Made by a program: the position numbers
Part shown: positions 51,001 to 57,000 of the stretch, piece by piece
How the letters are laid out: every line of letters starts with the position of its first letter
Position numbering within the stretch: the stretch's first letter is position 1
Origin: a virus
Lineage: Duplodnaviria > Heunggongvirae > Uroviricota > Caudoviricetes
IMG/VR virus record: IMGVR_UViG_2660238269_000009
Direction: 5' to 3' (one strand)
DNA: 60,442 bases

Positions 51001-54000
51001 GAACCAATAAACCATCCATTGCCCTCTGGTCGTTCCGGTTCCCATGCAGAAATATCAGCATCACACGCATCAAGGTCAGCACATCCTTCATCTCTGAAGC
51101 AGAGGACGTATTGAAGATTATTTTCCTCCATCCAGGCGTTAAACTCTTCCGTTGAAATATATTCCCGACCGTCACAGAATTTTTCATATTCAGGATGCGT
51201 CCAGCAGCCATATTCATCACGTACTACTGGTATTTCTTTGATTTCATTCATTTCTGTTCTCCCACGTTTTCAGACTTTCACCACAGAACGGACAAAATGA
51301 AACCCGAACTGGTAATTTAGAAAATTCACCGGAACGCAACATCACAAAATCAGGACCGCGAGTTAAACTCTCATTCCAGATTTTGTATATCAGCAGACCT
51401 TTTCGCATCGTGTATTCAGCATCATGCTCAAGGGACTTTGCCAGTGCTGCACATGGTTCTATCTTGTTGCCATTAACCTGGCATTTTGATTCACTCACCG
51501 CACCACCTCCTCAAAATTCCCCTGATAAAACGCCAGTACGCGCTGCATAACTTCGCTCTTCCGGCACTCGAGACAGATTATGTTCAGACGCCTGTCGTAG
51601 CGGCGTATTTCGCCATCTGGTAATGACCAGATAAGGTCCGGATCAACCGCAGATGGTTTCTTCGGCTTTGCCCTTGAGAGCTTTTTACGGGCATTTTGCC
51701 AGTCCTTACGCGCCTGTTCAGACGGGAATAACCCGTAACCAGAGTTGTATACATCGCCACTGGCAACCAGCTCTCTGGCCAGAACGCTCATCAGATATCT
51801 TGTTGCCCCAGTTTTAGTTTCCAGTTGTCGTAACGTCTCGCGCCCACTCTGGCGTACGAGTTCAACAACCTGCCCTTTAATTTTTTCCCGCTCTTCTTGT
51901 GTAAAAACTTTTGCCACAAGCCCTCCTGAAAATTACCTCATGACCAGAAATTAACACTTACCCCCTGAAGCCCGGCGGAATTTCAGTGTCCGGTTCAGAA
52001 ATGTGATTCACGCAACGCTGCGCAGGCGAACGCCCCAGGCGGATAACCAGTTCATCCCATTTTTCCCGGAGTTTTGCCGGACTCATGATGTTTTTTACCC
52101 AGAACGAATCCCGCTGGAGACGCCCAAACATTTCACAAATTTGTCTGTGAGTTCTGCCATCCAGCATCCGCATTGTGCGAACGTCATTGGCCCATGCTGT
52201 CCAGTTGGGTTCTTTCGGTCTAGTGATCTCGCCATCATAGCTGGCCGCCTGCTCGTAAAGACTCACGATTCGTCCCCAGATCCACTGTGCGCACACCAAA
52301 TCTTCCTGACTTCCCCACTGGCGTTTTTTCGCACTGAACACAACCGCGTCAGGGTGTCGGGTTAAAAAATCCTGTTCAGCCGTCTGCGGGTCCGGTTGCG
52401 AAGCGTCCGGACAAGAAGATCTTTTATCTGACGGATCAGGTTTTAATACTGACGGATCGGGGTCAATCATCGGCCCCTAATCGGCAGTTTTTTATCAACA
52501 GTTGATCCATCAAAATTTGACGGGTCAACCGTTGAGGGGTCAATATTTGACGGGTCAACTGTTAACGGGTCATTTTTTGCCGGGCTAATTTTTCTTTTCG
52601 GTTTATATGACTCACGCGCCGCCGCCGCAGCTGCTTCGAGTTTTTCCACATTAAGCCGATAGATATTGCTTACATTACGCCCACCGACCTTACGCTCTTC
52701 CTTCGTCAGCCAGCCCTCTTTCGCCAGTTCTGCAATAGCCGATTTCACTGTGGATTCACTTCTTGCACCGATCTGACGCCGGATAGTTTCAATGGCAGGC
52801 CATGACACGCCCTCGTCATTGCTGTAGTCTGCAAGACGGGCCATAACCGCCACCCTGGATAAGATCATGCCGGTGAAGGCGCACCCTTCCCAGACAAGAC
52901 CATGAAGCTTGCTGCTCATAAAACCCCCGAACACCGTGCTTTTAGTGCATCACCACAGCATTCCCTGCCGGGCCGCCGCGATTCATCTGGTCATACAAAA
53001 CAACCGCTGACGCAACAAAATCATCGACATCCTTCACCAGCCGATCCCTCCGTTCGACGATCTCACGGTAATATTCAGAACTGTGGCTGCGCATACGGGC
53101 CACCAGCAAAGGCGGCATCGCCTTTTCGATCGCCGGTAACAGAGCCTGCATTTTTTCAACAGCATCAGGGGTGTCTTTATCCAGCCAACGGAAAATTTTC
53201 TGGGTATTACGGGCCAGGGCTTCCGGATGGCTGTCGTCATACAGTTCCGGGAACGTCATTCCCAGCTCGAAATACGCTTTGGTAATTTTCGCAGCCGGCA
53301 CTTTTTCGCCGTCCGGATGCGCCCAAACATTCATCGCCATGCGGATGTGTTCATGCTTGATTTTCATGAATCATTCTTTCCTTCGTTCGAGGTGCTATCC
53401 TGCTTCTTGTAAAGTTCTGGGTTGTATTTCAATTCACCGTTAGTAATTTCATCCAGTTCCATTGCGCGAAGTTTGGGAATAACTGCTTTCCACCGCACAA
53501 CAGCCACATGTGAAATTCCAAGAGCCTCAGCTACTAGTCGCTTTTTTTTGAAATAGCGCAGAACATCATCTTTGAACATAAAACTCTCCTGTTATTTCGA
53601 GCAGAAGGGTAACAATAGTTACATAACAATGTCAACCATAGCAACATCACTTGGTGGTAACATTGGTTACATGAAAAACACTATCAGCGAACGTATTCGG
53701 AATCGTCGAAAAGACGTTGGATTAACCCAACAGCAGGTTGCGAAAGCAATCGGCATATCTCGTGTATCCGTAACAAAATGGGAAAATGGCTCTTCAAAAC
53801 CTGACGGTGAGAATTTGTATCTACTGTCAAAATTGCTTTCCAAATCTCCTGAATGGATTCTTTATGGAAAGGACGGTCACGATAAAACCGATGATCTGCG
53901 TCTGAATCAGTACCCTTACATTAGTGACAACATCGCCCGGTTGCCCGTTTTAACGTGGGAACAGGCTGGTTATTGGGATATGAGTTGTCCAGTAACCAAG

Positions 54001-57000
54001 ATTCCTGGTATTAAGAACTGGGTTGATGTCATGACAAAAACCGCTGAAAACTCTTTTTTATTGCATGTTGAGGGAGATGCGATGACAAACTCTAACGGCC
54101 TCCCAACCATCCCCGACGGATCTACCGTGCTGATCACACCATGCTCAAGTAACATTAGAGAACTGGTGGGAAAAATAATCTTAATCCAATTGGAAGGAAC
54201 GCCAAACGTAACACTAAAAAAAGTTGCGATTGACGGACCAAACATCTATCTGTTGTCACTGAATCCGCTTTACAAACCCATCGAACTGAATGGTGGTTAC
54301 ACCATTAAAGGTAAAGTTTCACAAATACATCAATACTTAGACTGAGTCAGAACCCGCATTCATTGCGGGTTTTTTATGCCCTCAAATGTACCTTTTGCAA
54401 CATTGTATTGACTTGAAAGGTAACTCTTGTTACCTTAACAACATACCAACCCACCCCGCCCCACAGAACGCAGGGAAATACTTCGAGTTACCCGGCAGTG
54501 GTCAGGGGTTAAGTAGCCAGCCCGAGGCGTAAGAACATGACGGCAGGGTTCAACTTTAATAACTATGCAGCAGGTTTTTGTTCCGCTACCCCGGCGTTAA
54601 GGGGAAATGAGGTCAGCATGGATACTATCGATCTTGGCAACAGCGAATCTCTGGTATGTGGCGTGTTCCCCAACCAGGACGGTACGTTCACCGCGATGAC
54701 GTATACCAAAAGCAAAACGTTTAAAACCGAAAATGGTGCCCGTCGCTGGCTGGAAAGAAACTCAGGTGAGTGATATGGATTTCAACACAATCATGGAAAA
54801 GGCTTACGAAGAATACTTCGAAGGCCTTGCCGAAGGCGAAGAAGCCCTCAGCTTCAGTGAGTTTAAACAGGCGCTTTCCAGTTCGGCAAAATCTAACGGC
54901 TGATAAGCGAAACAGCACCGCGAGGAATCAGTATGCAGAAACGAGAACCCGTCATCATCGCGCCAGACTATACCGATGATGAACTTTATGAGTGGATGCA
55001 CCAGAAAATTAAGGCTGCGCAGGACCTGAAATGGGCCAATGAAGCCAGGGCTAAGCAGGCTGAAAATCTGTCCGCTCTGGAGCAGGATATCACCAGGCTG
55101 GAAAAAGCAGCGGCATTAAGCATTGCCAGAATGATTACATACCCGCGTTAATAGCTAACCAACGAGGCTAATAATGGAATTTAAAGATTTACCAATGCCA
55201 TTCCAGGAAATGGCAGCGAATGTGGTTCGCTCTCAACTGGCGACTCTTGACCTGAGTACCGTAGAAAAAGAAACCATCGACAATATATCTGGTAACGTAC
55301 GCCGAGCCTTTATCGGGCTGTACGAAGAGAAGCAGCTCTCTGATAACCAGGATTTACATGAAAAATACTTTCTGGAATTAATGGACATCATTAATAAAGG
55401 ATTTGGCTTGTTAATGAAAAAGAAAGGGATTCGAATAGCTCCCCTTGAAAATCATTTTACAGCAAGCAGTATTAATTCCTGTGATTTAAAGCATCACACA
55501 TCCGATGGGAAAGTTGAATCAAACAACAAAATATCAATTAATCATTAATTTATTCACAGGTGAGGTAGAGTGCGTGCGCCGGACACGGATAAGAATCCGG
55601 CACTGACAGTTTACTGAAAAGGATATATCCCTGAAAAGTCAGGGCATAACACGAAAGCGCCCGGAGAAGTTAGTCTCTCTGTATAGGTCGTCGTTAAATT
55701 TAATTCGATCGTGCGCTTCCGGTTGTGGCAATCCGCGAAATGGCGCGGCGGTAAGTATGGCGGGGTTATTCCTTCCCCCGTTGAGGACACCGGGTTGTCA
55801 GGTTGACCATACGCTTAAGTGACAACTCCGCTGCAACGCCCTCTGTTATCAATTTTCTGGTGACTTTTGGCGGTATCAGTTTTACTCCGTGACTGCTCTG
55901 CCGCCCTTTTTAAAGTGAATTTTGTGATGTGGTGAATGCGGCTGAGCGCACGCGGAACAGTTAAAACCAAAAACAGTGTTATGGGTGGATTCTCTTTATC
56001 CGGCGTTAATTGTTAACTGGTTAACGTCACCTGGAGGCACCAGGCACTGCATCACAAAATTCATTGTTGAGGACGCGATAATGGAAACGTTATTACCAAA
56101 CGTTAATACGTCTGAAGGTTGTTTTGATATTGGTGTTCTGCTCAGTAACCGGGAGTTTACTGAAGATGCCATTAATATGAGGAAATATGAGCCTTATCTG
56201 CTCAATGATAATTCCATACTTTCCCGAATTGCTCTTCTTGAACTTGGTATTTTCGGAGAACGTCAATGACTTCAGCATTTGCACTGATGATGACGGTTTT
56301 TCTTATAACGGGTGAATCACAGAATGTGATTACCGGAATTTATGCAAGTAAAGAATCCTGCCTCCAGGCAAGAGACGAGCAAAAAATTTCTGGTGAATGC
56401 CTCCCGCTAAAAAAAGTATCGCTGTACCTGAATAACGAAACACCGGCTGGATAACCCTCCAGCCATATTAACACCATACCAACGGATTAAAAATGCCAGC
56501 AATGGCAGGGATTCGTTCACCCTGAAATCTGTAATGAGGTTAAAACAAAATGAGTAAGGTCTTTATTTGCGCTGCTATTCCTGATGAACAGGCCATAAAA
56601 GAAGATAGCGCTGTTGCGGTGGCCACTGCCATTGAAGCTGGTGATGAGCGTCGCGCACGCGCAAAATTTCATTGGCAATTTCTGGAGCAATTCCCTGCAG
56701 CTCAGGACTGCGCTTATAAATTTATTGTCTGTGAGGATAAACCCGGCATACCCCGCCCTGCCCTCGATTCCTGGGATGCTGAATATATGCAGGAAAACCG
56801 CTGGGATGAGGCGTCTGCTTCCTTTGTCCCGGTTGAGACTGAATCCGATCCGATGAACGTCACTTTTGACAAGCTGGCCCCTGAAGTACAGAACGCTGTC
56901 ATGGTTAAGTTCGACACATGTGAAAACATCACCGTTGATATGGTTATTAGCGCACAGGAATTGTTGCAGGAAGACATGGCAACATTCGACGGACATATCG

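Follow-up and report, generated by a model that had tools for sequence, protein, structure and literature searches.

In lambda CI, the nucleophile is S149, the general base is K192 and the scissile bond is at A111, and in the CI monomer bound to RecA the A111 carbonyl carbon is positioned 2.5 Å from the S149 hydroxyl oxygen (PMC9926225). Non-proteolytic cI proteins are also a recognized class, accounting for 210 of 271 in one survey (PMC10432266). The Gifsy repressors are non-proteolytic, DicA/GfoR-type proteins with trans-acting antirepressors, which are present in most E. coli genomes (PMC3121763), and PaaR2 reportedly lacks the peptidase motif and shows no response to mitomycin C (PMC8630535). 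Our literature search recovered only this general concept of non-proteolytic repressors, and no description of a natural Ser-to-Ala CI or of the repressor analyzed here. This repressor is encoded in IMGVR_UViG_2660238269_000009, a 60,442-nucleotide stretch of viral DNA (hereafter, the window) corresponding to a lambdoid prophage that adjoins ompW in E. coli, and it carries Ala in place of the nucleophilic Ser. We regard it as likely that this protein is a non-self-cleaving, natural ind-minus-like immunity repressor of a lambdoid, Qin-like prophage, uncoupling the prophage from direct RecA sensing, and that it represents a widespread, conserved addition to the known class of non-cleaving CI-like repressors.

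With lambda CI and P22 C2 (MEROPS S24), the window repressor shares its HTH_3 and S24 build, a divergent cro, operators on both sides, the linker Ala-Gly bond and the Lys base. It differs from lambda CI in having Ala for Ser, in overall identity (about 23-31%) and in its partners, which are YdaS/YdaT-like rather than lambda cro/cII. The same single nucleophile change is found in the laboratory non-cleavable mutants LexA S119A, M. tuberculosis LexA S160A and P. aeruginosa LexA S125A, and in lambda cI ind-minus. Laboratory Ser-to-Ala LexA mutants fold normally, and one has been imaged on RecA (PDB titles 1jhh, 1jhc, 6a2s, 8s7g), but such mutants are engineered, whereas the Ala of the window repressor is natural, fixed and conserved over hundreds of genomes. 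Gifsy GfoR/GtgR, N15 CB and 186 CI are not self-cleaving, and the N-terminal domain of the window repressor is akin to the DicA/GfoR group. Those repressors, however, are short (about 136 amino acids) or devoid of S24 and have a LexA-controlled antirepressor in the prophage, whereas the window repressor keeps a full S24 domain and the window yielded no gene of that kind. The cryptic-prophage repressors DicA (Qin), PaaR2 (CP-933P) and RacR (Rac) occupy the same slot, with divergent YdaS/Cro and YdaT genes and the same downstream ydfABC-DicF-dicB operon, but they lack any S24 domain, while the window repressor retains it with the nucleophile alone changed.

Alanine at the nucleophile position

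The repressor matches the Pfam families HTH_3 (residues 9-63, E = 3.5e-17) and Peptidase_S24 (PF00717; residues 92-216, E = 9.7e-17, 61.2 bits against a cutoff of 23.3), in agreement with the XRE helix-turn-helix (HTH) and LexA/S24-like C-terminal domain described in an earlier note made on this DNA from the sequence alone. It also matches PHROG 4, a large group of transcriptional repressors (E = 1.7e-43). Searches with phmmer against solved structures aligned it with full-length lambda CI (chain 3bdn_A, E = 3.4e-14) and with the P22 C2 N-terminal domain (E = 1.3e-12). An AlphaFold model of the protein, with a mean predicted local distance difference test (pLDDT) score of 78 and disorder confined to linker residues 70-87, has lambda CI (3bdn) as its best PDB match (Foldseek E = 7e-11). 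The C-terminal domain of the model compares with 1kca/1f39 at template modeling (TM) scores of 0.79-0.80 and a root-mean-square deviation (rmsd) of 2.1-2.2 Å, and the N-terminal domain with 3jxb (P22 C2) at a TM score of 0.94 and an rmsd of 0.7 Å. The NCBIfam DicA model hits residues 3-80 (E = 1.6e-22) with 79.7 bits, under the family cutoff of 101.

In the phmmer alignment to 3bdn_A, with chain positions counted, VEGDAMT of the repressor pairs with VEGNSMT of lambda CI, which places Ala137 on Ser149. Similarly, TLKKV pairs with TFKKL, placing Lys183 on Lys192, and EQAGYW pairs with VQAGMF, placing Ala99-Gly100 on Ala111-Gly112. In a 27-sequence family alignment the nucleophile column is free of gaps: most rows read G[DE]SM, the repressor reads GDAM, and Lys183 is invariant. 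This is the arrangement proposed in the earlier note, an Ala at the nucleophilic Ser position of VEGDAMT together with the conserved Lys, and the structure matches back the register. The note had also raised the case of a Ser located elsewhere at the catalytic position; phmmer, the family alignment and the structure matches revealed none. Because the Ser hydroxyl is the nucleophile (PMC9926225) and Ser-to-Ala LexA mutants are routinely employed in structural work as stable, uncleaved proteins, self-cleavage is predicted to be lost. With the alignment correct, established S24 enzymology thus favors the note's expectation that a repressor missing this nucleophile would be unable to undergo RecA-stimulated self-cleavage. 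The prophage is hence probably not induced directly by RecA filaments, and DNA damage probably cannot directly switch the repressor off.

To set this substitution against the wider family, 147 full-length relatives drawn from two database searches were aligned. The nucleophile column holds Ser in 127 of them, Ala in eight, Thr in six and other residues in six, and since 20 of the 147 lack Ser, dead-nucleophile S24 repressors are a recurrent theme. Half of the eight Ala rows belong to the window repressor's own family. In the remaining Ala rows and in most other non-Ser rows the Ala-Gly bond is lost too; outside the family, the non-Ser relatives keeping Ala at the first scissile position are P0054, P0120 and P0154, two of which keep Ala-Gly. 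What sets the window repressor apart is that only the nucleophile differs and every other catalytic feature is conserved.

The gene call of the earlier note, 53671-54345, stood as regards the open reading frame (ORF), and its start fits the distant homologs, which begin at the MK of 53671 in the 27-sequence alignment. The start annotated in RefSeq (WP_000103682.1, 238 amino acids) is a different one, at 53629, which lies 42 nucleotides, or 14 codons, upstream. The string NIGY in the RefSeq N-terminal extension (53629-53670) is the second operator of the locus (GGT AAC ATT GGT TAC) translated in frame. Because this conserved NIGY is an operator read in frame and the distant homologs start at 53671, the extension is probably operator DNA rather than coding sequence. 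Database names for 53629-54345 include 'LexA family protein', 'S24 family peptidase' and 'SOS-response transcriptional repressors (RecA-mediated autopeptidases)', despite the missing nucleophile.

Prevalence and evolution of the alanine allele

Of 5426 complete E. coli genomes, 702 carry the repressor gene; its identity is at least 99% in 630 of them, 95-99% in 64 and 80-90% in eight. To count the nucleophile codon itself, a 41-mer centered on the first base of codon 137, where a megablast seed needs a match, was searched in both versions. The identical 41-mer with GCG occurs in 682 complete E. coli genomes, whereas the version with TCG occurs in none. Sequencing error and private mutation can therefore both be dismissed as the source of the Ala codon. 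GCG is also carried by a 97% variant that is not among the 682 genomes and has 20 nucleotide but only four amino acid differences. At the protein level, all 14 listed distinct members of the repressor's 90% cluster (499 members) read EGDAMT, and the exact protein is found on at least 1000 contigs. It has also been recorded from Escherichia albertii.

Codon comparisons over six lineages and a neighbor-joining tree inferred with the nucleophile column left out were used to trace the substitution. Ala is encoded by GCG in the window type and in a second E. coli lineage (P0002, 86% nucleotide identity), and by GCA in a Salmonella relative (P0005, 66%), whereas Ser is encoded by TCA in the O178/P0003 lineage and by TCG in P0006; more distant relatives, available as protein sequences only, have Ser. 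The tree groups the window type with P0002, then with the Ser type, then with the Salmonella Ala relative, and leaves the Ser-bearing P0006 outside. We relied on its topology and well-supported terminal pairs, the deep-node bootstraps being unreliable because the rooting was mismatched when supports were calculated. Because the Salmonella relative is also Ala and falls outside the group of window type, P0002 and Ser type, the codon changed at least twice within this small family: Ala was gained twice, or it was gained once and reverted once.

The C-terminal domain shows a ratio of nonsynonymous to synonymous substitution rates (dN/dS) of 0.056 at dS 0.74 between the window type and P0002, both GCG, compared with 0.11 for a Ser-Ser pair. 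Between the same two Ala lineages, dN/dS is 0.058 in the cleavage-site region and 0.69 in the variable linker. The low dN/dS between these E. coli lineages shows that purifying selection maintains the S24 domain even with Ala at the nucleophile position, rather than leaving it to decay.

The immunity module is associated with different integrases and sites: ompW (the window and ST131 strain JJ1886), potC (strain H19), tRNA-Ser/mtfA, yccA and the inside of another prophage (O26 strain 97-3250). It is 98.9-100% identical between strains, against 85-92% for the flanking prophage DNA, and it thus moves as a recombination cassette. In E. coli 97-3250 (locus L017, NZ_CP027599.1 3279907-3300107), an identical Ala-type module resides in a Qin-like element (relBE, hokD, ydfV, flxA, ydfW, rem), where it takes the place held by dicA in K-12 Qin; the integrase of that element abuts remnants of another prophage with type III secretion system effector genes.

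The Ser-bearing sister allele (WP_024173670.1 / WP_028985609.1) shares 84% nucleotide and 87% amino acid identity with the Ala type, reads GDSM with codon TCA, and accounts for the eight complete E. coli genomes in the 80-90% identity band, versus about 694 for the Ala type. Judged from these totals (694 + 8 = 702), the two alleles never occur together in one complete genome. All 14 listed members of the Ser cluster read EGDSMT. Three Ser-allele genomes were opened, revealing a Stx2a prophage (O178:H19), a Stx2d prophage (STEC434) and a non-Stx prophage. In a survey of 260 Stx-phage CI proteins, the autocleavage Ser was present in every S24-bearing clade (PMC8951638).

Operators, proposed mechanism and competing explanations

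The locus has the layout of a lambdoid immunity region, with a repressor HTH domain, a divergent cro-type gene and palindromic operators both between these two genes and by the leftward operon (Table 1). Two of the palindromes fall within the 91 bp that separate the cro-like gene from the repressor gene. Across the 60 kb, GGTAAC-N5-GTTAC (with GTAAC-N4-GTTAC as its inner form) is confined to the three tabulated positions, with five strand-matches versus 0.19 expected, and its positions are conserved in five related loci of Ala and Ser types (Ser-type loci, P0002, P0003 and a 66%-identical relative). Beyond dicB, the operon on the repressor side continues with exonuclease, xis and int. A consensus scan of 53300-54700 returned no sigma-70 promoter, nor did it report the terminator-like hairpin after the repressor gene. 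The segment 53300-54500 (1201 bases) is 100% identical to strain 2013C-3181.

Table 1. Positions in the window of the repressor, its catalytic residues, the immunity region and insertions and a porin gene elsewhere in the prophage.
Feature	Position	Strand	Evidence or remark
Repressor gene	53671..54345	+	224 aa; ORF list, Pfam, PHROG, RefSeq annotation
HTH_3 (XRE/Cro-CI) DNA-binding domain	53695..53859	+	Closest solved relative: P22 C2 N-terminal domain
Peptidase_S24-fold C-terminal domain	53944..54318	+	
Ala99-Gly100 (GCT GGT), retained, on scissile Ala111-Gly112 of lambda CI	53965..53970	+	phmmer alignment
Ala137 codon GCG, at nucleophile position (lambda Ser149)	54079..54081	+	Alignments, 41-mer counts
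Lys183 codon AAA, retained, on general base Lys192 of lambda CI	54217..54219	+	phmmer and family alignment
Operator-like palindrome 1, GGTAACAATAGTTAC	53608..53622	.	Between cro and repressor gene; also in Ser-type, P0002/P0003/P0006 loci
Operator-like palindrome 2, GGTAACATTGGTTAC	53656..53670	.	Abuts ATG at 53671
Operator-like palindrome 3, GGTAACTCTTGTTAC	54419..54433	.	Downstream of repressor gene, just after TTGACT hexamer, ahead of ydfA-dicB operon (pL-like position)
Hairpin and T-run (intrinsic terminator-like)	54348..54377	+	Directly 3' of repressor stop; RNA fold -16.7 kcal/mol
Divergent cro-like gene (P22_Cro / YdaS-like)	53364..53579	-	Pfam P22_Cro E = 2.9e-16; RefSeq Cro/CI family
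YdaT-family gene in cII position	52942..53367	-	Pfam YdaT_toxin E = 2.8e-10
Operon presumed repressor-controlled: ydfA-like (DUF1391), ydfB, ydfC, 124-aa ORF, DicF small RNA (55855-55906), dicB, DUF1482	54618..56454	+	
IS66-family insertions (two)	972-3587, 10725-13141		
Frameshifted IS421	46332-47443		
ompC-like porin gene	15490-16644		

On this layout, the HTH domain would bind the three GTAAC-N4-GTTAC palindromes, two in the cro-repressor gap and one at the promoter of the ydfA-DicF-dicB-exo-xis-int operon, and binding would keep the cro, ydaT and replication genes and the toxic division inhibitors off. With Ala137 in place of the nucleophile there would be no acyl-enzyme step, and RecA filaments would be unable to trigger self-cleavage. 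The repressor would be the natural equivalent of a laboratory ind-minus or S-to-A repressor, leaving the switch uncoupled from direct SOS sensing, with its C-terminal domain kept by selection, presumably for dimerization and cooperative operator binding.

The Ser-bearing allele has its three operator palindromes at the same places, a near-identical Cro HTH and the same gene order, but it reads GDSM (TCA) instead of GDAM (GCG) and resides in Stx2 prophages, in which toxin output is induction-dependent. Because the operators lie at the same places and the Cro HTH segments are identical in both types, the two alleles are predicted to share operator specificity. Since the Ser allele uses the same operators, the Ala protein would provide non-inducible immunity against homoimmune SOS-inducible phages, Stx2 phages included, and would dominantly repress them. 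A more ambitious proposal, which we regard as doubtful, is that the nucleophile codon acts as a selected toggle within one immunity group, the Ser alleles being SOS-inducible (including Stx2a and Stx2d converters) and the Ala alleles serving as dominant locks that recombination carries into lambdoid prophages at many integration sites, with the cleavage site and Lys kept for RecA-filament docking or mixed oligomers. If this were true, an Ala-type prophage would silence homoimmune inducible phages and keep them out, so that strains acquiring both would release less Stx2.

Several observations weigh against a non-self-cleaving repressor that simply removes its prophage from direct RecA control. 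Distant E. coli lineages and several integration sites share identical alleles, implying horizontal spread, which would be easier to explain if the prophages were still inducible in some way. In the Ala lineage, the Ala-Gly bond, its WEQAG flank and Lys183 do not vary at all, and WEQAG is the same in each of the 28 members listed for the Ala and Ser clusters; such conservation would be unexpected had cleavage long been irrelevant, and leaves room for cleavage in trans or a recent loss. The complete-genome collection is, moreover, biased toward clinical clones. Finally, a search of phage collections found no isolated or deposited phage with a repressor more than 43% identical to the Ala type, but the Ser type likewise had no close match there, so that this absence is weak evidence for non-inducibility.

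The main competing explanation differs only on inducibility: the repressor would be non-cleavable, yet the prophage would be induced by an antirepressor, perhaps LexA-controlled, that is encoded in a co-resident prophage or elsewhere and inactivates the repressor by binding it, as in Gifsy-1/-2/-3, N15 and 186. We consider this possible, if less than probable. The similarity of the N-terminal domain to DicA/GfoR-type repressors, as seen in the DicA model match, connects the window repressor to a group with documented trans-acting antirepressors (PMC3121763); many carrier strains, such as O26, O111 and ST131, are poly-lysogens; and the spread of identical alleles suggests that the carrier phages still move. 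On the other hand, no particular antirepressor has been linked to the window repressor, and the annotation of this prophage includes none (Ant, Tum, KilA-N/Bro or Rha). In the window, the LexA box CTGT-N8-ACAG has two GC-rich matches in tail or insertion sequence (IS) DNA, at chance level (0.63 expected), and the 20-mer LexA consensus has no match with three or fewer mismatches. A looser scan returned as the sole LexA-box-like element a CTG-N10-CAG site with an AT-rich spacer and five mismatches (42425-42444, AACTGGATATTTTTACAGTG; 0.2 expected by chance), at the start of a methyltransferase gene. Of the two outcomes offered in the earlier note, a different route of induction or no induction by the SOS pathway, the finding in the window of no antirepressor gene and of no LexA box beside a candidate for one leans toward a prophage that is not directly SOS-inducible.

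Two candidates for an additional induction element were considered and rejected. The 42425 site was discarded as an antirepressor control element, given that the opening codons of the DNA methyltransferase gene overlap it and no small ORF adjoins it. The gene at 38598-39659, encoding HTH and Peptidase_M78 (ImmA/IrrE-like) domains, was discarded as a repressor-cleaving protease, given its PADLOC assignment as RmrA and its absence from the JJ1886 prophage, which carries an identical repressor.

It is improbable that Ala137 reflects neutral decay in a dead prophage, a recent loss of function without selective meaning. The window copy of the prophage may be defective because of its two IS66-family insertions and frameshifted IS421, and one carrier has a frameshifted integrase. 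However, purifying selection is strong over the whole gene, with the two Ala lineages at dS 0.6, and the same GCG is shared by 682 genomes that span many lineages and several integration sites. The core phage genes of the JJ1886 copy, from capsid to integrase, are without annotated IS or pseudogene (one hypothetical ORF is partial), a second Ala lineage exists in Salmonella (GCA), and Ser-to-Ala is the one substitution that abolishes catalysis with the fold intact.

Very improbable, in turn, is the explanation that the repressor is a substrate cut in trans on RecA filaments by a Ser-bearing S24 partner, whether a Ser-type repressor in mixed dimers or a CI/LexA/UmuD-type protein, although it would fit the fact that neither the cleavage-site region nor Lys183 varies within the Ala lineage. 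Kim and Little in 1993 reportedly described intermolecular cleavage of LexA and lambda CI in vitro, but trans cleavage of CI is inefficient. With no complete genome holding both Ala and Ser alleles, the Ala protein lacks its natural partner. UmuD is known to undergo intermolecular cleavage, but the short A111-S149 distance in the lambda CI monomer on RecA points to cleavage in cis (PMC9926225).

That the alignment misleads and self-cleavage persists through a nearby Ser or Thr is hardly credible: Thr139 does lie two residues on (GDAMT) and Thr occupies the nucleophile column in six of the 147 relatives, but G-[DE]-S-M-T is gap-free in 127 of the 147 and in lambda CI, the register is confirmed by structure matches, and lambda CI also has the Thr that follows Met, which is non-catalytic there.

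Tools that deduce prophage inducibility from an S24 match would get this locus wrong in about one in eight complete E. coli genomes. If non-cleavable, the repressor would provide a natural control for the role of repressor cleavage and an example of a prophage grounded by one substitution, its immunity function still selected. With an inducible sister allele using the same operators in Stx2 prophages, a single A137S or S137A swap could show how cleavage sets phage and toxin release.

Other features of the prophage

The two IS66-family insertions lie in the tail-fibre/J region, the frameshifted IS421 in the nin region and the ompC-like porin gene among the tail genes. On the minus strand at 38598-40354, PADLOC identified a 353-amino-acid protein with HTH_3 and Peptidase_M78 domains as RmrA (E = 1.5e-95) and its 201-amino-acid neighbor as RmrT (E = 2.1e-17). 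This defense/toxin-antitoxin pair takes the position of the stx genes in Stx phages, downstream of Q and the tRNAs, and is absent from the JJ1886 ompW prophage. Three tRNA genes are present at 41105-41353.

Rfam matches above gathering score comprise, besides the DicF antisense RNA (55855-55906, plus strand, 75.8 bits), the sok antitoxin RNA beside hokD (47787-47962, minus strand, 117 bits) and the small RNA STnc100 (37480-37692, minus strand, 139 bits). Between hokD/IS421 and a second Q-family antiterminator, three co-oriented genes (48138-50288, plus strand; 363, 142 and 197 amino acids) run opposite to the surrounding early genes; they match only PHROGs of unknown function, with no Pfam or PADLOC match. 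O26 strains carry other cargo in this slot, namely a 'beta family protein' and a sce7726-family gene.

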